A DNA stretch of 64,000 bases from Patescibacteria group bacterium (GTDB lineage Bacteria > Patescibacteriota > Doudnabacteria > UBA920): NCBI GenBank assembly GCA_013387205.1, contig WARV01000008.1, forward strand, positions 128,136-192,135, read 5' to 3'. This document shows positions 3,215 to 49,149 of this stretch, one piece after another. The notes under the pieces were generated by a model, which worked only from the letters and a program-made list of their open reading frames with translations, did not search any database and was not told the DNA's origin. A program made the translations under genes and the position numbers. Numbering within the stretch: position 1 is the first letter of the stretch; each line of letters opens with the position of its first letter.

Positions 3215-3237
3215 ATACGCTAGCTTATAAATAACTT

Positions 3238-3362
3238 GTCATTGCGAGGAGCGCATCCGATCGAGACAATCTGATCACCGGGCGTCATCCTGAGTGCAGC
3301 CGAAGGATCTCAATAAAAATAAGAGATTCTTCGCCCTCAGATGCATTCGGGCTCAGAATGAC
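3238..3362. repeat. GTCATTGCGAG-family modular palindromic repeat, copy 1 (modules A + B + inverted B), inside greA 5' UTR
   Basis: gtcattgcgagg...caatc ; gtcatcctgagtgcagccgaaggatctc ; loop ; gagattcttcg...ctcagaatgac. Confidence 0.7.
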
Positions 3363-3909: not shown

Positions 3910-3927
3910 ATACTTTAAGCATAAAAA

Positions 3928-4023
3928 TAATCCGAATTATCCGAATATTATCCAAATGACCCGAATAGGGAAGAACTCATTTGGGGCATTCGGATGCTGA
4001 TTCGGGGCATTAGGATTACATAA
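3928..4023. repeat. ~95-bp palindromic ATCCGAAT/ATTCGGAT element, copy A, ending exactly at lysS start codon
   Basis: aatccgaattatccgaat...caaatgacccgaa...catttgg.gcattcggatgctgattcggggcattaggattacataa; near-identical copy upstream of tsf. Confidence 0.6.
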
Positions 4024-9821: not shown

Positions 9822-9843
9822 TTATGTAAATAATACTTGCAAA

Positions 9844-9878: not shown

Positions 9879-9892
9879 GATACCCCACGAAT

Positions 9893-9915
9893 ACCTCAAC
9901 CGATGGTTGAGCCAT
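9893..9915. repeat. GGCTCAACC-N4-GGTTGAGCC hairpin family, degenerate copy 1
   Basis: cctcaaccgatggttgagcc. Confidence 0.5.
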
Positions 9916-9928
9916 TCAATTCCGCATA

Positions 9929-10042
9929 CCCCGTATATCAACATTCGATTCTGTTATTTTACCCAGCTTTGATAACAACCAAGTCTTGTTGTAATATCAG
10001 CATATTGATATTGCTAACCATATCGAATGTTGTATTACGGGG
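9929..10042. mobile_element. MITE-like element, copy 1 (~114 bp, ~21-bp terminal inverted repeats CCCCGTATATCAACATTCGAT)
   Basis: near-identical second copy at 48989..49101; TIR ccccgtatatcaacattcgat / atcgaatgttgtattacgggg; no coding capacity. Confidence 0.7.
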
Positions 10043-10076
10043 CTTAAATAAGCCAATTATATTTTCTACAAAAAAC

Positions 10077-11651
10077 CTAATTCACCTTATACTCCGTAAC
10101 CACAATCCAGGTGCCGACCCAGGGGCGGACATCTTCGTAACCTTTCTCATCAACCTGCACCCAATTTTTCGGCGTCTCTGGCTTATTGGATCCAAATCCA
10201 TTGGTCCACAAAAGCCAAACGGTGTCGCCGGGCTTGGTGGAGGCTTTAAAATCCGGCACCAAATCTTCATTAGTTAAAATCGCCGAACCGGCTATATGGG
10301 AAATATTCTTCACATCTGCCACACCGCCCGTGAAAAGCTGAGGCCTGACAGGAGTCTTGTTATAATATTTATAATTGAAAAATTCAAAAGAAGTCCCGAC
10401 GTATAATTTTTGCCCCGGCTCGACATTGGCCTGCAGATATTTTGCCGCACCAGCCATGCCAGGCCGAGTTTGTATTTTAAGCTGGCTCCAATAATAAGAA
10501 AAGGTGAACAGATTAAGTACGATATAAATTATAAACAAGCCGGCAGCAAATAACTTATTCTTTAATTGCGACATCCATACTGCTAAGGCAATTGAATAGT
10601 ATATGCTGGCAAACAGAAAATATCTATCCATGTAGACCGATGACGAGCTGCCTTTTAATTTGGCCAATAAGGCAAATAAAACCGCTCCGCCAAATGGGGC
10701 AATTATTGCCAAAACCACAAGCCATTTGTGGAAGAAATCGGTTTTTCTGACGAATTTATATATAAAGTAAATTGAAAACAGGAAAATTACTGCAAGCCAA
10801 AATTGCGTGGATGTTTTGGCTGTATCGCGGCCAAGGCCTAAAAGCATATCCCACAAAGTCGCGGGAATGCTCCAGCGGTTGATTGGCGGAATCCAGTACC
10901 CGGCTCCCACTTGGCGGTATTGGAACAAAAAAGTCTTAAGCCAAGGAAGGAAAGACAATCCAATAACCAGGTAAGATGCGATTATGTAAATATATTTTCT
11001 AAAATCCCACTTGTGATGGGAAAACAAGTAAACTAATCCATAAAAACCTAACGCTGCCGCGGTAAAGAACAAATAATAATGCGTGTAAATTATTACTATC
11101 ATGGACAAAGTGAATCCAAAATAGTTTAAAAGCATATTGCGCTTTAAATTGATATCCTGAGGCAGGTTGGGTATTTTTAAAGCCCGGGTCTCATGCAGCT
11201 GCTTTTGCTGGTTCAAAGCTTTAACTAAGAAATACCCGGCAAGCAAGGCAAAAAACGCGCCCATGGTATACATTCTTGCTTCGGTTACATATTTTAGCTG
11301 GAACGGATTAAGGGCGATAAAAACCGCGGCCCAAATCGCAGCTCTCTCGTTTTTAAATGCTTCTTTGACAAATGCATAGCCGGCCCAAATAGAAGCTACG
11401 CCAAAAAATATAGACATGCCGCGCAGGGACAGCAGGGAATCGCCGAAAATATAATGCCAGAACCTCAAAAATACGTAATACATCGGCGGGTGGACATCCA
11501 GCCCAATGCGGTACACCATCTCGCTCCAGCTGTACCTGATAAGCAATGCCGAAAACGCCTCGTCATGCCAGAGGGAAATTAAAGTATTGTTGTAAAACCT
11601 CAAAACCGTCCCTAAAATTAGGATCAAAATTAAAGGAAGGTGTTTTTTCAT
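10077..11651 (-). CDS. membrane glycosyltransferase, PMT/ArnT (GT39/GT83-like) family
   Basis: multi-TM protein with N-terminal LRFYNNTLISLWHDEAFSALL... motif typical of dolichyl-phosphate-mannose-protein mannosyltransferase-like proteins; 524 aa. Confidence 0.75.
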   Translation of the reverse strand: MKKHLPLILILILGTVLRFYNNTLISLWHDEAFSALLIRYSWSEMVYRIGLDVHPPMYYVFLRFWHYIFGDSLLSLRGMSIFFGVASIWAGYAFVKEAFKNERAAIWAAVFIALNPFQLKYVTEARMYTMGAFFALLAGYFLVKALNQQKQLHETRALKIPNLPQDINLKRNMLLNYFGFTLSMIVIIYTHYYLFFTAAALGFYGLVYLFSHHKWDFRKYIYIIASYLVIGLSFLPWLKTFLFQYRQVGAGYWIPPINRWSIPATLWDMLLGLGRDTAKTSTQFWLAVIFLFSIYFIYKFVRKTDFFHKWLVVLAIIAPFGGAVLFALLAKLKGSSSSVYMDRYFLFASIYYSIALAVWMSQLKNKLFAAGLFIIYIVLNLFTFSYYWSQLKIQTRPGMAGAAKYLQANVEPGQKLYVGTSFEFFNYKYYNKTPVRPQLFTGGVADVKNISHIAGSAILTNEDLVPDFKASTKPGDTVWLLWTNGFGSNKPETPKNWVQVDEKGYEDVRPWVGTWIVVTEYKVN

Positions 11652-11720: not shown

Positions 11721-12824
11721 CTACTTAATAAATACAAGGCTTCCTATTGGGACATAATCACCACTTAATGTAAAATCAAGATTGTTATGTTTGGTTACGG
11801 CAACAGACGATTCTTTTGCAGACGTTTTATCTTTAAAACGCAAAATTGTCCAAACTGCTCCGCTAGTCGCGACCTGTTGTTCTTCGACAATTTTTAAATT
11901 AGTATCTTGTCTAACATCTTTAAGTGCGTCAATACCATTATCTTTACCTACTTCAAGAGAGTAGTTCGCATTTGTCGGACCGTCATTATTTACACCGAAA
12001 TCTAAACGTAAAACCCCAGGGCATTGTTCGCTGTTGTTGCAAATTTGGATAGGATCACAATAATCCAAATTACCACACTCGTTAACTGAATATTTAAACT
12101 CAAAACCATACTCCTCATTTCTATAAGTTTTCCATGTGCTTGTGTCGACTTGCGGTTGGGTAAATTTGAAGGTGGAAAGGATTTCTTTATAAACTTGTTG
12201 CTGCTCGTCAAATATTTTTTGGCCGCAATCAGCTTCACATGCTGGTGATATAATCATGTCGTACACTGAATTATTATTTTCAAATAAAATTCCATTATAC
12301 CCACCCACGTCGCTAAATATATATTCAAGAGCTGGCAGACCTGCAAGCTGAGAATCTGAAATTGTATCAGCACCTTCTATATTTTGGTTTGCCCATTGTC
12401 TTAATGATAAGCGTTGGGGATTTGGGCGCACTTCAATAATAATATCATAGCCGTCCATTGCTACATTAACTCCAGGCTGAGCATTATCCGGTAACAAGCC
12501 GCCAGAACGTAAAAGCTCGAGTTTAGTGTTCTCTAAAATTACAACCATCGAACTCTCTTTATTAAAGTAATGAAATTTTAAATCCTTGGGTTCCTTTAAA
12601 TATAAGTACTTTGGGTAATGAAATTCAAATCCATACTCGTCATTTTTATAAGTCTTCCAATCCTTTAAATCCTCTTTGGCAGTTGTGGTAGAGGATTGGG
12701 TTTTGGTTTTATGATGGATGGAAATCGGACTGTAATCGGCAAAAGGCAAATTGGCATAGTAAATTATGCCGGCGGCAATTGCCGCCACTACAATTATCAA
12801 TATTATCCAATATTTGTGCTTCAT
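11721..12824 (-). CDS. hypothetical membrane-anchored extracellular protein with internal tandem duplication
   Basis: N-terminal TM anchor; motif WKTY(K/R)NEEYGFEF(H/K)Y occurs twice. Confidence 0.5.
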   Translation of the reverse strand: MKHKYWIILIIVVAAIAAGIIYYANLPFADYSPISIHHKTKTQSSTTTAKEDLKDWKTYKNDEYGFEFHYPKYLYLKEPKDLKFHYFNKESSMVVILENTKLELLRSGGLLPDNAQPGVNVAMDGYDIIIEVRPNPQRLSLRQWANQNIEGADTISDSQLAGLPALEYIFSDVGGYNGILFENNNSVYDMIISPACEADCGQKIFDEQQQVYKEILSTFKFTQPQVDTSTWKTYRNEEYGFEFKYSVNECGNLDYCDPIQICNNSEQCPGVLRLDFGVNNDGPTNANYSLEVGKDNGIDALKDVRQDTNLKIVEEQQVATSGAVWTILRFKDKTSAKESSVAVTKHNNLDFTLSGDYVPIGSLVFIK

Positions 12825-12848
12825 GGGATTAAACTGAACTCATCCTAT

Positions 12849-12962
12849 CCTTCTCTTTAGCAAAGAGAAGGAACCAACTAAGTAAGATTAGTAAATAATT
12901 ATCAGCTAACCTTTCTTAGCATGTTCTCCCTCTTTTCTAAAGAGGGAGACAGAGGGAGTTCT
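12849..12962. repeat. structured direct repeat unit 1 (two hairpins CCTYCTCTTT-N3-AAAGAGRAGG plus CTTAGCATGTTC core) flanking DUF559 gene
   Basis: ccttctctttagcaaagagaaggaaccaactaa...cttagcatgttctccctcttttctaaagagggagacagagggagttc; second unit at 13348..13459. Confidence 0.6.
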
Positions 12963-12984
12963 GAATTAGTTATGTTTTTAATTG

Positions 12985-13335
12985 TTAGATTGTTTTAACG
13001 ATTTCTTCGTATACACCCTCAATATTATTCAAGACATCATTATTCCAAAAACGGATGACATAGACACCTATGCTATTTAAGTATTCAGTTCTTTCCTTAT
13101 CATAAAGCTTATCAACTTCCAGATTATGCTGTCCGCCATCGATCTCTATACATAACTTTATTGAAGGGCAATAAAAATCGAGGATATACCTTCCAACCCC
13201 GTATTGCCTAAAAAACTTTAAACCCTTTATTTTCCTGTTTCTTACAATTCCCCAAATTTTCCTTTCCGCATCTGTAAGTCTTTTACGTAATGTTTTTCGT
13301 ATTTCTTTTGTTTGGGACTTGTTATAGATTCTCAT
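12985..13335 (-). CDS. DUF559 endonuclease-domain protein (Vsr/restriction-endonuclease-like fold)
   Basis: LTDAERKIWGIVRNRKIKGLKFFRQY...YILDFYCPSIKLCIEIDGGQH...VIRFWNNDV typical of DUF559; 116 aa. Confidence 0.75.
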   Translation of the reverse strand: MRIYNKSQTKEIRKTLRKRLTDAERKIWGIVRNRKIKGLKFFRQYGVGRYILDFYCPSIKLCIEIDGGQHNLEVDKLYDKERTEYLNSIGVYVIRFWNNDVLNNIEGVYEEIVKTI

Positions 13336-13347
13336 GGAAATTCTTAA

Positions 13348-13459
13348 CTCCTCCTGTCCTCCTCTTTTTTAAAGAGGAGGAACCAACTAAAACGCTAAAA
13401 TGATAATCATCACCACATCGTCTTAGCATGTTCCCTCTCTTTACCAAAGAGAAGGGCAG
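13348..13459. repeat. structured direct repeat unit 2 (same architecture as 12849..12962, with compensatory stem substitutions)
   Basis: cctcctcttttttaaagaggaggaaccaactaaaacg...cttagcatgttccctctctttaccaaagagaagggcagggtgagttcc. Confidence 0.6.
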
Positions 13460-13470
13460 GGTGAGTTCCG

Positions 13471-15144
13471 TTATTCAATTTTATACACCGCCATTGTGGC
13501 TTGGTTGAATTTATTGCGGTATTCGAGAAATAAACGAGCTTGCGGATGGTATTGCTTGAATTTCTTGATGTCAAAAATGCTGGATTGGGTAAAGATAACT
13601 TTATCGCCAAGCTTTAAATTGGAGAGCTTCCAGGAATCTTCCGGGTCAACTTGGTTGTATGGCACATTGCAAGGATCACTGAAATCACCATGCCAGTTGC
13701 TGGTTAAATAATCGGTTGTTTGCACCGAGAATTTATCGAGCACGAGATAAGTATGTTCCTTATCGCAATTTTGGACAAGATATTTACTGGTTCTGGTTAA
13801 GTCTGACCTGAAGTAATAAAAATTTTCCGGAGAATTTGCCGCATAAACAAAATACAAAAAGTAAGTCTGCAAAATTAATGCCAAGACAAAAGCCGCAGCT
13901 GCAAATTTAAACGCGTTCAGCACTAGCCTGGATCTTCTTGAATCATCCATGTGGTATTTGGTATAGACTCCGTGGTGCGCTTTTAGCACAATGCGGCAAA
14001 ATTCATAAATCGCCCATGCGGTTATTATAAACACGACAGGGATTGTGCCGATGGACCTAAGCCCATGGGGAATTCCTTCTGCCGTAGTGATAACAGGAAG
14101 CAACATACCCCAAAACCATCCGGTTAATAGGAAATACGGCCAAAAATGCTTCCTTTTGTTCGGCGCAAAAAAATACCAAATGCCGAAAATAGTGACAATT
14201 ACCAAGCCGATACCGAAAAACGGGCTGATGATTTGCGACAGGAAGGGGAATCCGGAAATGTTATGCCGCCAATTCAAATCGCCTTTAGTAAAGTAGGCAA
14301 GCATGCTTTCCTTTAAAACCTGCCCGACTGTACCGATTAAATTGCCATGGTTAAGCTCCGGGTTAAATACGCTAACCTGTCCGCTACGGCCGACAAATGA
14401 ACCAGGGTGGGTGTAAAAATATTTCGCAATGGGATAAATAAAAACTACAAAACCGATAATAAAACTGATAACAGGTAATTTATAACTAGAAGCAGTTTTC
14501 CAGAATTGTTTTTGCTTGATTTGGGCAAGCAGCGGCCAGGCTATTATCATAAACAAAATAGGAGCCATTATGCGGTAAGCGATGTATGTGTAAAAACCCA
14601 AGGCAAATGACGCGCCGGTAAGCAATGCCAAAATCATGCGATTTCTTAAAGTTTTTGACTGGAAACTGGCAATCAGCAAATACAAAGTCAGGGTGGAAAA
14701 GAGGGGAATAAGATTGGCGCGAAAAGCAGTACGTGACAAAACCACATACCAGGAATTTACAGCCATCAAAAATGAAGCCAAAAGAGCGATGTTAACGGAA
14801 CGGTTTTTGTCTTCGCCATTAAACATGGAAAACAACCTTCTGGTTAAAAAGAAAGTAATTAAAACCGACAAAACTCCTACTAAAGCCGAAACAATATGAT
14901 GTTGCCACGGACCTTTGCCAAAAAGTTCAACGCTGCCCCAAAGCATGTAAAAGAACAAGGCCTCCCTTCCGTTCCCGCGTTCGTAAAACGGCTGTAAGTG
15001 CCCTTGCTGCATTAAGTTAATATCCAATCCGTTGGCGGCTTCATCAGGGAATAGTCCGCCAGGCATAATGTTAATTTGGTAAAATCTAAAAAACACGGCC
15101 AAAAATATTATGCCGATTAAGAACAATTTTTGTTTCTGCGTCAT
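13471..15144 (-). CDS. membrane glycosyltransferase, PMT/ArnT (GT39/GT83-like) family, paralog
   Basis: FYQINIMPGGLFPDEAANGLDINLMQQG... N-terminal motif and ~12 TM segments; 557 aa. Confidence 0.75.
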   Translation of the reverse strand: MTQKQKLFLIGIIFLAVFFRFYQINIMPGGLFPDEAANGLDINLMQQGHLQPFYERGNGREALFFYMLWGSVELFGKGPWQHHIVSALVGVLSVLITFFLTRRLFSMFNGEDKNRSVNIALLASFLMAVNSWYVVLSRTAFRANLIPLFSTLTLYLLIASFQSKTLRNRMILALLTGASFALGFYTYIAYRIMAPILFMIIAWPLLAQIKQKQFWKTASSYKLPVISFIIGFVVFIYPIAKYFYTHPGSFVGRSGQVSVFNPELNHGNLIGTVGQVLKESMLAYFTKGDLNWRHNISGFPFLSQIISPFFGIGLVIVTIFGIWYFFAPNKRKHFWPYFLLTGWFWGMLLPVITTAEGIPHGLRSIGTIPVVFIITAWAIYEFCRIVLKAHHGVYTKYHMDDSRRSRLVLNAFKFAAAAFVLALILQTYFLYFVYAANSPENFYYFRSDLTRTSKYLVQNCDKEHTYLVLDKFSVQTTDYLTSNWHGDFSDPCNVPYNQVDPEDSWKLSNLKLGDKVIFTQSSIFDIKKFKQYHPQARLFLEYRNKFNQATMAVYKIE

Positions 15145-27399: not shown

Positions 27400-27490
27400 T
27401 TTGTTTCAGTTCCGTTTTTGATTTATGTTATTATAACATGCTTTGTTGCAAAAAACAAAAAAATAAGTTAAAATATAGGAAATTAGTATT

Positions 27491-27605
27491 GTCATTGCGA
27501 GAAGCCCGCAGGGCGACGTGGCAATCTAATCCTAAATCGAGATCCTTCGGATGCACTCAGGATGACGCCTGTGGCGCCAGATCAGATGCATTCGCCCGCA
27601 ATGAC
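27491..27605. repeat. GTCATTGCGAG-family repeat, copy 2 (A + inverted B + inverted A-end), immediately upstream of adk start
   Basis: gtcattgcgagaagc...ggcaatc ; gagatccttcggatgcactcaggatgac ; ...cgcccgcaatgac. Confidence 0.7.
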
Positions 27606-42559: not shown

Positions 42560-42640
42560 ATTTTGAAACCCTCTTCTCCTTGCCAGGAGAAGAGTTGGAG
42601 ATGAGGTCGAAACACGGCAACAGACCCAGATATATTTCAC

Positions 42641-43072: not shown

Positions 43073-43996
43073 CTATATCTTTATTTCCGCATATCTCCAC
43101 TTGCCCGCGAAATCTTTGTGGAAATTTATTACTGCATTTGGCAGATTTTTTTTAATTAGATGATTTAATTCCTGCTTTTGTCTTGGATCGAATTCCAAAT
43201 AAACTAATTTTGGCTTGTTTTTTCTCTGCGCGATTTGCTCCAAAAGTTTTCTGATTAACACCAGCCCATTTTCTTTTGCAAAAATGGAATTTTTCGGCTC
43301 AAATTTTAAATTTGCTTTAAGTTTTTTATAATCACTAACTGGAACGTAGGGGAGATTGGCGATTATAATATCAAAATCTCCTTTAACATTTTTCAGTAAA
43401 TCGCTTTTTATGAATTGAATACCACTCACGCCAATTCTCCCATACGCTGGAGTATGGGAGTTTTTGGCTAAAATATTTTTAGCGTTCTCTTTTGCAACCT
43501 TCAAAGCTTTTTCTGATATATCTGATGCAACAATCCGCAATTCGTAATCCGCAATCCGAAATTCTTTCGCCAACGAAACCGCAATGCATCCGCTTCCTGT
43601 CCCAATGTCCAAAATTTTTACAATGTCATTGCGAGGAGCCAGGGCTTTATCTGGCGACGAAGCAATCTTTTCTTGGCTTGGTTTAGATTGCTTCGCTCGG
43701 ATGCACTCGCTCGCAATGACAAGGTCCACCACCATCTCCGTCTCCGGCCTGGGGATTAAAACATCCTTATTCACCTTAAACCTTAAGCCCCTAAAATCCT
43801 TGTATCCCAAAATATACGCAATCGGTTCGCCTTTAAGGCGGCGTTTAATGAATTTTGTTAAATTGTTATATTGTTTTTTTGTTAAATTGTAATCTGGATG
43901 CAAAAAAACAAACTCCTTGGGCTTTTTCAAAACATGCGCCAGCAGGAGTTCAATTTCTATTTTATGGTATTTTTTTAAAGCCACGCTGATTGTCAT
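43073..43996 (-). CDS. prmC: release-factor glutamine methyltransferase (PrmC/HemK) with in-frame repeat-element insertion
   Basis: PRPETEMVV, DIGTGSGCIAVSLA, NLPY(V) motif (ANLPYVPVSD); ~30 extra residues between PETE and DIGTG. Confidence 0.85.
   Translation of the reverse strand: MTISVALKKYHKIEIELLLAHVLKKPKEFVFLHPDYNLTKKQYNNLTKFIKRRLKGEPIAYILGYKDFRGLRFKVNKDVLIPRPETEMVVDLVIASECIRAKQSKPSQEKIASSPDKALAPRNDIVKILDIGTGSGCIAVSLAKEFRIADYELRIVASDISEKALKVAKENAKNILAKNSHTPAYGRIGVSGIQFIKSDLLKNVKGDFDIIIANLPYVPVSDYKKLKANLKFEPKNSIFAKENGLVLIRKLLEQIAQRKNKPKLVYLEFDPRQKQELNHLIKKNLPNAVINFHKDFAGKWRYAEIKI
43625..43720. repeat. GTCATTGCGAG-family repeat, copy 4, with perfect terminal inverted repeats GTCATTGCGAG/CTCGCAATGAC, inserted in-frame in prmC
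   Basis: gtcattgcgaggagccagggctttatctggcgacgaagcaatc...tcggatgcactcgctcgcaatgac; 96 bp = 32 codons (residues ~92-123 of PrmC). Confidence 0.65.
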
Positions 43997-45904: not shown

Positions 45905-45985
45905 TGCGAATGGCATCCGAATCAGCGAATGACTATGAATATAATATTCGGGTCATTCGGATATGATTCGGGTCATTCGGATCGG
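45905..45985. repeat. ATTCGGAT/ATCCGAAT repeat cluster
   Basis: gcgaatggcatccgaatcagcgaatgac...attcgggtcattcggatatgattcgggtcattcggat. Confidence 0.45.
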
Positions 45986-46084
45986 TTAAATTGGTTAACT
46001 TATCAGAATTATCTCATATATTATAATCTCTCTTGCCAAAATAGTCAAGGCCTGGTATAATTACAGCAATATTAATCTAACATG

Positions 46085-46937: not shown

Positions 46938-46942
46938 GTAAC

Positions 46943-47034
46943 ATAATCCGAATTATCCGAATTCTATACAAATGACCCGAAAAGGGAATTATTTGGAGCA
47001 TTCGGATACTAATTCGGGGCATTAGGATTATAAA
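46943..47034. repeat. ~95-bp palindromic ATCCGAAT/ATTCGGAT element, copy B, ending exactly at tsf start codon
   Basis: ataatccgaattatccgaattctatacaaatgacccgaaaagggaattatttggagcattcggatactaattcggggcattaggattataaa. Confidence 0.6.
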
Positions 47035-47616
47035 ATGGACAATTCATTACTAAAAGAACTCCGCGAAATGACCGGTGCAGGCATGATGGAAATTAAGGAA
47101 GCCTTGGCCGAGACCAACAACGACAAAGAAAAAACCATTGAGCTCTTAAGGAAAAAGGGCGCGCTTAAGCTCGGCAAAAAAGCCGACCGCGTAGCAAAAG
47201 AGGGGATAATTGAAACCTACATACACCCGGGCGGACGCATGGGCGTTTTGCTTGAACTTAACTGCGAAACCGATTTCGTCGCCAGGACAGACGCGTTTAA
47301 ATCTTTGGCTAAGGAAGTCTGCTTGCATGTTGCAGCAGCCAACCCATTGTACGTTTCCGTAAATGACGTGCCTGCCGAAGTCATCGAAAAAGAAAAGGAA
47401 ATTTACAAGGAACAAATGAAAGGCAAGCCCGAAGACGTCATTGCCAAAATTATGGAAGGCAAACTTGCCAAATACTTCGAAGAAGTTTGCCTGCTTGAGC
47501 AGCCGTATGTAAAAAATCCGGATATTAAAATAAAGGATTTAATCGGCGAAGCTGTCGCGAAAATCGGGGAAAACGTGCAAATCCGCCGCTTTACCCGCTA
47601 TGTATTAGGAAGCTAA
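47035..47616 (+). CDS. tsf: elongation factor Ts (short form)
   Basis: UBA-like N-terminus LKELREMTGAGMMEIKEALAETNND, dimerisation domain; 193 aa. Confidence 0.9.
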   Translation: MDNSLLKELREMTGAGMMEIKEALAETNNDKEKTIELLRKKGALKLGKKADRVAKEGIIETYIHPGGRMGVLLELNCETDFVARTDAFKSLAKEVCLHVAAANPLYVSVNDVPAEVIEKEKEIYKEQMKGKPEDVIAKIMEGKLAKYFEEVCLLEQPYVKNPDIKIKDLIGEAVAKIGENVQIRRFTRYVLGS

Positions 47617-48559: not shown

Positions 48560-48567
48560 ATGTTGAT

Positions 48568-48654
48568 GTCATTGCGAGGAAACAAGGGCTTTGGCTTGTT
48601 TCCGAAGCAATCTATATATCACTGGCGTCATTCTGAGTGCATCCGAAGAATCTC
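48568..48654. repeat. GTCATTGCGAG-family repeat, copy 5 (A + B modules)
   Basis: gtcattgcgaggaaacaagggctttggcttgtttccgaagcaatc ... gtcattctgagtgcatccgaagaatctc. Confidence 0.7.
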
Positions 48655-48740
48655 GTTAAAGTTTAAAACCTCTAGCGCAAAATCGCTTATTGTGATAAAA
48701 TATCTAGGAAATTAGTTTAATAAAAAATCTCTTTCTTTGT

Positions 48741-48947: not shown

Positions 48948-48978
48948 TAATGGCTCAACCGTAGGTTGAGCCATTTAT
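48948..48978. repeat. GGCTCAACC-family hairpin
   Basis: ttaatggctcaaccgtaggttgagccattta. Confidence 0.6.
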
Positions 48979-48988
48979 TTTTGCTTTA

Positions 48989-49101
48989 CCCCGTATATCA
49001 ACATTCGATTCAGTTTATTTACCAAGTATTGATAACAAATAAGCTTTGATTATTATTAACATATTGATTTTACTAATCATATCAAATGTTGTATTACGGG
49101 G
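48989..49101. mobile_element. MITE-like element, copy 2 (same family as 9929..10042)
   Basis: ccccgtatatcaacattcgattcagtttattt...atcaaatgttgtattacgggg, ~80% identical to copy 1 incl. both TIRs. Confidence 0.7.
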
Positions 49102-49149
49102 CTTATTTAAGGCTTTTTTCTAAATATTCGCATACTTATGCCAAATTCT

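Follow-up and report, generated by a model that had tools for sequence, protein, structure and literature searches.

A DUF559 nuclease gene bracketed by inverted triplex motifs in a Patescibacteria genome

Analysis of a 64-kb stretch of DNA from a Patescibacteria group bacterium (contig WARV01000008.1, 64,000 nucleotides, here called the window) showed that a small gene of the DUF559 nuclease family lies between two long structured units, each built from an inverted pair of triplex motifs (TMs). The reading which we favour, with moderate confidence, is that the locus is a DUF559 nuclease gene cassette ending in TMs of the BoxC/PIT/TM class, that is, a nuclease-repeat module of a REPIN-RAYT-like or homing-like kind. 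The motif has a three-block architecture in which all three blocks covary; small DUF559 genes of many phyla are strongly bracketed by TMs in a specific orientation; and the TM-DUF559-TM segment is inserted or absent as one unit between conserved genes. The bracketed gene behaves as a unit that can be inserted and duplicated and that is passed on mostly by vertical inheritance.

Structure of the two units

The preliminary description of this locus reported a 116-aa DUF559 gene between two similar structured units of about 113 bp. The units are real and do flank the gene, but they extend further than was described, from 12836 to 12961 (unit 1, U1) and from 13345 to 13469 (unit 2, U2), since outer GAACTC.../...GAGTTC tails belong to both. 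The two units, 126 and 125 nt long, are 73% identical: their ends share 79-83% identity and their central ~30 nt are diverged. All four occurrences of the palindrome core CTCTTTnnnAAAGAG in the window fall inside U1 or U2 (0 expected from shuffles), and the cores CTTAGCATGTTC and GGAACCAACTAA are each found exactly twice, once per unit. Core and palindrome searches of the 64-kb window found no copy of the U1/U2 type beyond these two.

Each unit is a single long imperfect inverted repeat. The similarity of the units had been described as that of direct repeats containing separate conserved cores; the similarity stands, but the cores AACCAACTAA and CTTAGCATGTTC pair as the arms of a single inner stem and are not independent boxes. 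The minus strand carries every gene of the region, the DUF559 gene sitting between unit 2 and unit 1, and RNA folding of this gene strand gave -55.9 kcal/mol for U1 (z = -5.6) and -64.3 kcal/mol for U2 (z = -8.0). The inner stem of unit 2 encloses a loop of ~30 nt with a small hairpin.

Each unit consists of an inverted pair of a ~36-nt TM, made of a pyrimidine arm, a loop of 3 nt, a purine arm, 1-3 nt and a G-rich tail (Table 1). The tail mirrors the purine arm: when the tail in 5'->3' direction is set against the purine arm in 3'->5' direction, G stands opposite G, and A or T opposite A, as in AAAGAGGAGGA-c-AGGAGGAGTT and AAAGAGAAGGA-t-AGGATGAGTT (purine arm-spacer-tail). TM1-TM3 share a stem of 11 bp, a loop of 3 nt and a spacer of 1 nt, and in each of them 10/10 tail positions fit the G.G / A.A / T.A rule, with TM1 including a T opposite A. 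The corresponding hairpin of TM4, which had been described as one of the stems of unit 2, is present but imperfect. It has a 10-bp stem with one bulge, the purine arm containing one extra A, and the relaxed detector (see below) counted 7/8 tail matches and one stem mismatch, or 9/10 when the extra A is left out; the tail and the pyrimidine arm of TM4 are mutually consistent.

Two other readings of the tail were considered and set aside. The pyrimidine motif (C+.G:C) on the complementary strand fits just 7 positions and fails at T opposite A, and the purine-strand reading was therefore preferred. A G-quadruplex would have only two G-runs per strand in each motif.

The compensatory stem differences noted in the preliminary description were also found, but the covariation is three-way rather than two-way. 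In the three intact copies, purine arms AAAGAG[AAGG/GGAG/GAGG]A are matched both by their own pyrimidine arms and by mirrored tails (GGAT/GAGG/GGAG). The suggestion that the hairpins are under selection for structure was supported.

The arrangement of the motifs around the gene is regular. The tail of TM3 ends 9 nt ahead of the DUF559 ATG, an orientation and spacing that match 54/77 other DUF559 loci, and TM2 starts 23 nt from the DUF559 stop codon, inverted relative to TM3 as in 49/77 other loci. Each of these gene-proximal TMs has an inverted partner ~55 nt further out, and thereby the two 126-nt long-hairpin doublets look like direct repeats around the gene. The distal motifs adjoin the neighbouring genes: TM4 begins 1 nt past the stop codon of the upstream glycosyltransferase gene, and the tail of TM1 ends 11 nt ahead of the ATG of the 367-aa PsbP_2-like gene. 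In total, 5 TMs were found in the 64 kb, all intergenic, 4 of them in the two inverted pairs. The fifth is a solo TM of the same motif class and of different sequence, which is intergenic, has no DUF559 gene nearby and lies outside the cassette.

It is extremely unlikely that the units are ordinary terminators, or REP-like RNA stabilisers, of the minus-strand neighbours and have nothing to do with the DUF559 gene. Such a role would suit the position of both units between co-directional genes and the start of TM4 directly after a stop codon, and the window does hold other, true terminator-like hairpin families. However, no hairpin-plus-T-run (intrinsic terminator-like) site was found on either strand of 12836-12961 or 13345-13469, and Rfam searches of the window at gathering thresholds returned tRNAs only; at permissive thresholds the units gave only weak miRNA-precursor-like, that is, long-hairpin matches. 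Moreover, the units occur in the 64 kb solely around the DUF559 gene, and the association of this gene family with the motif is general, as described below.

Covariation of the three blocks and relation to the BoxC/PIT/TM repeats

By its sequence, the window motif belongs to a published class of intrastrand-triplex repeats (class II purine motif), which has been described as the BoxC repeat (1990s, Bachellier et al.), the PIT element (Hoyne and Maher 2000) and the TM (Holder et al. 2015, PMC4666352). In this class three successive blocks of one strand, joined by short loops, form class II purine-motif triads (PMC4666352). The criteria applied for a TM were a stem of at least 6-7, block-separating loops of 1-6 nt, and an antiparallel third strand obeying G.G:C, A.A:T and T.A:T with at most one mismatch.

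Escherichia coli MG1655 carries 23 TM copies, and the E. coli sequence TMECO, which forms a stable triplex in vitro, is the only one for which this has been demonstrated; E. coli has five inverted TM pairs, each of which always combines two subtypes (PMC4666352). TM loci are unusually variable among E. coli strains and have been linked to genome instability. They are intergenic, multi-copy and chromosomal and are not found on phages or plasmids, and the main survey recorded no mobility functions near them (PMC4666352). PIT/TM elements were reported to have no promoter or terminator activity in E. coli, and no other function had been assigned to them (as cited in PMC4666352).

The window copies share with the BoxC/PIT/TM elements the three-block plan, the intergenic location, the repetition and the occurrence in inverted pairs. 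They differ in being A/T-richer, with CTCTTT/AAAGAG cores, and in coming from a genome of the Candidate Phyla Radiation (CPR). They also differ in their company: the TM literature examined reports no associated gene, whereas the TMs of the window bracket a nuclease gene.

Counting stems in motifs chosen by a detector is circular, since perfect stems are what the detector selects, and covariation was judged instead by one test starting from the hairpin and one starting from the mirror. In the hairpin-first test, 945 distinct pyrimidine/purine hairpins were collected from all fetched DNA; 37% had a rule-obeying 3' tail and 282 a perfect one (8/8), compared with 5.8% and 6, respectively, for shuffled tails. 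The tail base opposite A was A in 532 cases, T in 355, G in 8 and C in 9. In the mirror-first test a complementary arm was found upstream at 220 of 285 purine mirror sites, as against 64 in the downstream control. The two results give independent support to the three-block architecture. The sequence of the palindrome is lineage-specific (CTCTTT/AAAGAG, CTCTTA/TAAGAG, CTCTCCC/GGGAGAG, CCCCCT/AGGGGG or CCCCTTT/AAAGGGG), and the three blocks always covary. Although RNA is not expected to accommodate a purine-motif third strand (PMC4666352), the tail varies together with the hairpin, and this speaks for a structure at the DNA level.

Association of DUF559 genes with triplex motifs

Two samples were used. 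On the gene side, 80 metagenomic loci were picked solely by a DUF559 peptide pattern; on the motif side, one genome per species was scanned for two CTCTTTnnnAAAGAG palindrome cores 45-75 nt apart. In the first sample (loci are numbered L, and DUF559 proteins P), the relaxed detector found a TM upstream of the gene, with hairpin followed by tail on the sense strand, in 54/77 loci, an inverted TM downstream in 49/77, and both in 42/74. The background of 0.195 TM per kb (shuffles, 0.007 per kb) corresponds to ~1.8% expected per side. The enrichment at DUF559 genes is ~40-fold (binomial P ~1e-76 upstream and ~1e-66 downstream). With the strict detector, for which the background was 0.165 per kb, the counts were 40/77 upstream, 41/77 downstream and 30 for both.

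The motif-side scan yielded at least 118 loci in many phyla; among the loci listed, 7 had a DUF559 gene, always directly beside the motif. The preliminary description had suggested a search for DUF559 genes with the same flanks in related genomes; TM-flanked DUF559 genes were found both in the metagenomic loci and in isolates.

The median distance from the end of the upstream tail to the start codon is 12 nt, the tail often reading ...GAGTTATG; the downstream TM lies a median of 14 nt past the gene end and often includes the stop codon. The orientation of terminal inverted repeats is preferred on both sides (57 vs 24 upstream and 56 vs 30 downstream, 89 loci). Left-end and right-end TMs can differ in subtype, and this difference is conserved among related loci (L118, L191, L163, L175).

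The association recurs from CPR to Proteobacteria and Cyanobacteria. In Sphingomonas parapaucimobilis YK209 a TM doublet with outward-facing tails is present in two direct copies and the DUF559 gene is sandwiched between them as in the window, and DUF559 genes of Pseudanabaena and Photobacterium are likewise flanked by TMs. The arrangement [TM...TM]-gene-[TM...TM] was also found in Saccharibacteria (L097). The extra distal TM on each side may have arisen by motif duplication or by decay of tandem cassettes.

In E. coli K-12 the 3' end of ycjD reads into TM-like sequence, and a canonical TM, which is TMECO, lies ~170 nt downstream; this canonical stretch occurs at a median of 19 places per genome (5,426 genomes). 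In both E. coli and Haemophilus the TM beside the DUF559 gene is of the dispersed type. Remnants of a second copy were seen in L206 and downstream of E. coli ycjD. In the latter (L204, NC_000913.3 1351040-1351410, minus), a ~65-nt duplicate of the ycjD 3' end (...ETVLENIRQGLNRP...) follows the ycjD stop codon and precedes the canonical TM, which suggests that a second, tandem cassette has decayed there.

Tandem arrays of up to 9-13 TMs were observed directly beside DUF559 genes (L181 2140-2476 and L197 2207-3217). In the array of L197, two TM subtypes alternate in opposite orientation.

The proximity of the upstream tail to the start codon could also be due to regulation. In such an explanation, which we hold to be rather unlikely, the DUF559 protein is a solitary Vsr-like mismatch or repair nuclease, the TMs are cis elements that restrain or insulate a potentially toxic nuclease by sequestration of the ribosome-binding site, by hairpins stabilising the mRNA or by a barrier to replication or transcription, and the whole spreads only by ordinary recombination. 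In its favour, the DUF559 protein VsrA of Caulobacter induces the SOS response when its cognate methylation is missing (PMC12907096). In addition, the spacing between the G-rich tail and the start codon is that of a Shine-Dalgarno sequence, transcripts of the gene strand would fold into strong structures at the long hairpins, and many cassettes are stably syntenic. Nevertheless, TMs far outnumber DUF559 genes and stand beside all kinds of genes, as their background density illustrates, and an element regulating from the 5' side does not need symmetric inverted TMs on both sides of the gene. Nor would regulation through promoters, terminators or RNA agree with the lack of such activity of PIT/TM in E. 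coli, or with a tail that covaries with the hairpin although its third strand is not expected in RNA (PMC4666352).

Filled and empty sites

The preliminary description proposed a mobile-element-like link of the DUF559 gene to the repeats and the existence of filled and empty sites. Both were borne out, the second in another CPR lineage and not at the window locus. The comparison was made at another locus, in a well-sampled Doudnabacteria-like lineage, since the best homologue of the 367-aa neighbour of the window cassette is 44% identical over 54% of its length.

In this lineage the gene order AspRS, tRNA_edit, ScpA, ScpB, ROK is conserved. At two filled sites (L119, L124), TM-DUF559-TM lies between tRNA_edit and ScpA. 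At the empty sites (L208/L209, L213/L214) the junction reads TAActtATG or TAAcaaATG, with a 3-nt spacer between the genes and no TM; the ScpA proteins of L124, L208/L209 and L213/L214 are 78-81% identical to that of L119. These empty sites indicate that the motifs arrive and leave together with the gene and do not form a target that was there beforehand.

This result bears directly on the proposal, made in the preliminary description, that the structured unit was an independent repeat, already in place, that served a DUF559 homing endonuclease for recognition or insertion, and that the insertion split or duplicated it. The proposal was not upheld, and we regard it as unlikely. It is true that the gene lies exactly between two similar units, that the same sandwich exists in Sphingomonas, that gene-less TM doublets with inward-facing tails in Pasteurellaceae resemble empty cassettes, that DUF559 is related to the homing endonuclease I-Bth0305I, and that other small nuclease genes and palindromes have a hotspot at the tRNA_edit/ScpA junction. 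However, the empty sites syntenic to the filled ones have 3 nt between the genes and no TM at all, and no target-site duplication was found; minimal cassettes have just one TM on each side; the identity of U1 and U2 is as low as 73%, with unrelated centres; the left and right TMs are consistently of different subtypes; and genomes retain many gene-less TMs, evidently unconverted.

Two diverged copies of the unit, with the paralogues P0042 and P0090, are present in one genome. The paralogues are 83% identical and lie 287 kb apart on one 523-kb CPR contig, in unrelated contexts, each with its own covarying TMs. Among related pairs some are syntenic (L146/L160/L161, L119/L124, L196/L200), and others of similar protein identity have no flanking genes in common (L128/L138/L152/L132, L108/L163, L143/L154). 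P0006, which is present on many contigs, was always found in one context and gave no signal of mobility.

In E. coli, the segment made of ycjD and its TM is present in 3,346/5,426 genomes, and the eefRABCD operon occupies the same place in the rest. The homology breaks on the fabI side just past the TM, and common sequence resumes ~30 nt beyond. At least 2 independent replacements have been inferred at this ycjD/eef site (PMC12817139). When E. coli O157:H7 (L205, NZ_CP040107.1) was compared with K-12 (L204), the sapF-fabI interval was seen to hold either ycjD+TM or a 7.5-kb cluster of eefRABCD and an MFS gene. DUF559 genes are scarce on phages (2 records) and plasmids (40 records, mostly chromids), which matches what was reported for TMs.

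The tRNA_edit/ScpA junction of the Doudnabacteria-like genomes is itself an insertion hotspot, and the other insertions seen there are without TMs. They comprise a GIY-YIG open reading frame (ORF), a 56-nt perfect palindrome and a 170-184-nt inverted-repeat element (L215 2460-2800 and 1505-1885; L210 2449-2489; L211 2331-2500). The small GIY-YIG ORF is flanked by inverted repeats TGTTCGAGnnnGTCGAGAACcTAAA and is called as a fusion with ScpA. A PDDEXK_3 gene lies one junction upstream.

It could be argued that TMs and small nuclease genes are simply junk that accumulates together in permissive or unstable intergenic spots, or that breaks induced by TMs capture genes. The hypervariability of TM loci in E. 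coli (PMC4666352), the several unrelated small elements at the ScpA junction and the use of the sapF-fabI interval as a swap site would agree with this. But the enrichment is ~40-fold and orientation-specific and lies within ~12-14 nt of either end of the ORF; CPR, Proteobacteria and Cyanobacteria all show it; the other elements of the hotspot carry no TMs; and each paralogue has its own TM pair. We consider joint accumulation very unlikely.

Proposed mechanism and significance

In the favoured reading, that of a cassette ending in TMs, the tail of each TM could run antiparallel along the purine arm and form a third strand (G.G:C, A.A:T, T.A:T). The TM just before the start codon and the inverted TM just after the stop codon are placed like terminal inverted repeats. 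Vsr-fold enzymes nick at distorted DNA. By analogy, the DUF559 protein may recognise the folded or extruded TM ends and nick there as a structure-specific nuclease, and the nicks would lead to the cassette being copied or inserted. The gene-less TMs and TM doublets, which are far more numerous in many genomes, would be non-autonomous derivatives on which the nuclease works in trans, in the way that RAYT works on REPINs. With its sequence GGAGGAG and its position 9 nt from the ATG, the G-rich tail probably doubles as the ribosome-binding site of an otherwise promoter-less cassette.

Several observations weigh against this interpretation. At the filled and empty junctions (L119/L124 vs L208/L209/L213/L214) no target-site duplication or precise end could be defined, and ~14 nt outside each TM are likewise absent from the empty sites and form part of the inserted segment. 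Several cassettes have remained stably syntenic over long divergence (L146/L160/L161, L119/L124, L196/L200). The TMs of E. coli are mostly orthologous and static (PMC4666352), so that mobility, if any, must be rare. A minority of TMs have the opposite orientation (24 upstream and 30 downstream among the 89 loci), and 19/80 DUF559 genes have no detectable canonically oriented TM on either side, several of them showing complex or reversed arrangements. In vivo footprinting detected no stable triplexes in E. coli (PMC4666352), and Caulobacter VsrA, the sole DUF559 member with in vivo data, behaves as a methylation-linked Vsr-like nuclease (PMC12907096). What the comparisons show is the association of gene and motif; action of the nuclease on the motif is inferred.

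A broader proposal, which we put forward tentatively and at somewhat less than even weight, is that DUF559/YcjD nucleases are the missing partner enzymes of the BoxC/PIT/TM repeats from CPR to E. coli, recognising the triplex-hairpin at the cassette ends and mobilising or maintaining the gene-less motifs. Since the 1990s TMs have been listed for hundreds of bacterial genomes, yet they have not been connected with any gene, enzyme or mechanism, and DUF559, which includes E. coli YcjD and a solved Neisseria structure, had no assigned role; coupling the two joins both questions into one hypothesis. In the searchable literature, a collection that is incomplete so that an earlier description elsewhere is possible, papers on DUF559/ycjD do not mention these repeats and papers on BoxC/PIT/TM do not mention the gene. 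If true, the proposal would assign a role to a nuclease family that is among the largest still uncharacterised, would explain the origin, spread and instability of a repeat orphaned for 30 years, and would hint at a nuclease capable of reading DNA triplex or hairpin junctions. It can be tested in a model organism, through the action of YcjD on TMECO.

The DUF559 protein and its neighbourhood

The ORF between the units is a full-length DUF559 protein and, from its sequence matches, a predicted nuclease with a Vsr-like fold, as the preliminary description had identified it. It matched Pfam PF04480 with E=7.5e-36 and 122.8 bits (cut-off 20.6) over profile positions 3-107 of 109, and NCBIfam PRK09767 (YcjD) with E=3e-29, under the equivalog cut-off. 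The closest solved structure is the 'endonuclease-like protein' of Neisseria gonorrhoeae (PDB 3hrl, E=1.4e-32), and the DUF559 profile distantly matches the homing endonuclease I-Bth0305I ('mobile intron protein', PDB 3r3p, E=1.6e-5). The active-site pattern of the family, DFYC ... E.DG.QH, contains acidic and histidine residues; D53, E64, D66 and H70 are invariant across a 16-sequence alignment, are all present in the window protein and align with 3hrl.

Searches with Pfam, NCBIfam and PADLOC profiles did not assign the protein to a known transposase family. A role in a defence system was also considered and discarded, PADLOC having returned only weak generic restriction-fold matches. The gene is the only DUF559 gene of the 64-kb window (tblastn), and no cytosine methyltransferase gene adjoins it. 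The family as a whole comprises 24,893 clusters at 50% identity (E<=1e-3).

Many DUF559 proteins in databases (P0006, P0012, P0037, P0060 and others) are 10-60 aa over-long, gene callers having read through the flanking motif. The over-long or fused calls carry stereotyped tails or heads: ...NSPRPSL, ...SPRPSL, ...LLPTSSLEKRR, ...LPTSSLEKR and PSLFSKEG. Read-through of the motif explains many such calls.

The surroundings had been described as a glycosyltransferase cluster. Two PMT_2 glycosyltransferase genes are indeed present, and a PsbP_2-like protein is encoded immediately beside the cassette (Table 1).

Table 1. Genes and motifs of the DUF559 locus, in gene order, and the solo triplex motif of the window
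Feature	Position	Strand	Sequence (TMs: pyrimidine arm-loop-purine arm-spacer-tail)	Remark
PMT_2 glycosyltransferase gene	13471-15144	minus		first in gene order, then unit 2
TM4, distal motif of unit 2	13433..13469	+	CCCTCTCTTT-acc-AAAGAGAAGGG-ca-GGGTGAGTTCC	
Inner stem and variable loop, unit 2	13381..13432	minus	arms AACATGCTAAG, TTTAGTTGGTT (gene strand)	minus-strand fold
TM3, gene-proximal, upstream of DUF559	13345..13381	minus	TCCTCCTCTTT-aaa-AAAGAGGAGGA-c-AGGAGGAGTTA	
DUF559 nuclease gene (YcjD-like, Vsr-fold PD-(D/E)XK, predicted)	12985..13335	minus		116 aa, intact; Pfam PF04480
TM2, gene-proximal, downstream of DUF559	12925..12961	+	TCTCCCTCTTT-tct-AAAGAGGGAGA-c-AGAGGGAGTTC	
Inner stem and variable loop, unit 1	12872..12924	minus	arms ACATGCTAAG, CTTAGTTGGTT (gene strand)	fold and unit alignment
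TM1, distal motif of unit 1	12836..12872	minus	TCCTTCTCTTT-gct-AAAGAGAAGGA-t-AGGATGAGTTC	
PsbP_2-like protein gene	11721-12824	minus		367 aa; after unit 1 in gene order
Second PMT_2 glycosyltransferase gene	10077-11651	minus		last in gene order
Solo TM, different sequence	42571..42605	+	CTCTTCTCCT-tgcc-AGGAGAAGAG-ttg-GAGATGAGGT	detector

Other repeat families

The solo TM directly follows a stop codon and just precedes one copy of a 3-copy hairpin family, CAAAGGGCAyCCTTnnnnnnnAAGGrTGCCCTTTG, located at 9840, 19652 and 42640.

A ~160-nt repeat is present at 9890-10052 and 48949-49111 (84-85% identical) and combines a hairpin AATGGCTCAACC...GGTTGAGCCATT with a long inverted repeat TACCCCGTATATCAACATTCGAT...ATCGAATGTTGTATTACGGGGC; the hairpin has 7 copies in the window. 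This repeat looks like a second family in the genome resembling miniature inverted-repeat transposable elements (MITEs). Another repeat, of ~100 nt, was found at 3924-4023 and 46940-47035 (also 45945-45989), with ~90% identity and CCGAAT/ATTCGG-rich, partly inverted units. The family TTGTCATTGCGAGGAGC ... GGCGTCATCCTGAGTGCAGCCGAAGGATCTC has at least 4 copies, in both orientations, at 3236-3314, 27489-27573, 43623-43644 and 48566-48655. A similar GTGTCATTCCAGAA...TTCTGGGATGACAC element occupies the tRNA_edit/ScpA junction in L211/L212.

An Oscillospiraceae metagenome-assembled genome from termite gut (WRLS01) contains dozens of ~130-nt inverted doublets GCCACCCTCTTTAAAAAAGAGGGTACGTCCTACGG...CCCTCTTTTTTAAAGAGGGTGGC (L001, L010, L012, L027 and ~40 more loci). 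The Oscillospiraceae CCACCCTCTTTaaaAAAGAGGGTGG doublets, which were matched by the scan for two CTCTTTnnnAAAGAG cores, have no third-strand tail and no DUF559 gene nearby, and were set aside as a separate abundant family.

Comparison with known systems

The Vsr nuclease of E. coli and VsrA of Caulobacter (PMC12907096) share with the window protein the catalytic fold, which in VsrA is a DUF559 domain, and nick at distorted DNA. The window differs in that no cytosine methyltransferase adjoins the gene, and the Vsr literature examined does not link Vsr nucleases to flanking repeats.

With MITEs and the Correia/NEMIS elements, the units share a length of ~125 nt, long terminal inverted repeats, long hairpins, an intergenic position and co-transcription, and gene-less copies resemble internally deleted cassettes. 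TM3 and TM2, inverted around the ORF, correspond to the terminal inverted repeats of an insertion sequence (IS) or MITE. Unlike those elements, the cassette has no recognisable transposase family, no target-site duplication was found, and its ends are triplex motifs.

Homing endonucleases offer a further comparison, and the observations are compatible with a homing-endonuclease-like life style. I-Bth0305I (Vsr-like EDxHD, 3r3p) is likewise a small nuclease ORF of the same fold family, although a distant one. Filled and empty sites exist between conserved genes in the Doudnabacteria-like relatives (L119/L124 vs L208/L209/L213/L214), and the insertion hotspot is common to GIY-YIG genes. However, the DUF559 cassette lies outside any intron or intein and carries its own structured inverted ends, and the empty site has no motif, so that the motif is not a split target.

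In the REP/REPIN-RAYT system, structured repeats occur as singlets and as inverted doublets that form long hairpins, a chromosomal gene, usually single-copy and mostly vertically inherited, is flanked by them on both sides, and the repeats greatly outnumber the gene (Nunvar 2010; Bertels and Rainey 2011, PMC3116915). In the same way, the window gene is flanked on both sides by a structured repeat, in inverted orientation, and the repeats also form inverted doublets. There are clear differences. RAYT is an IS200/IS605-type HUH Y1 transposase, whereas the window gene is predicted to encode a Vsr-fold PD-(D/E)XK nuclease; a REP consists of a hairpin and a conserved tetranucleotide, whereas a TM has a triplex-type third segment; and the two ends of the cassette present the folding strand on opposite strands. 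By analogy, REP/REPIN-RAYT is the closest functional counterpart of the DUF559 cassette, which, since its enzyme is not a Y1 transposase, would be an analogue of that system and not a member of it.

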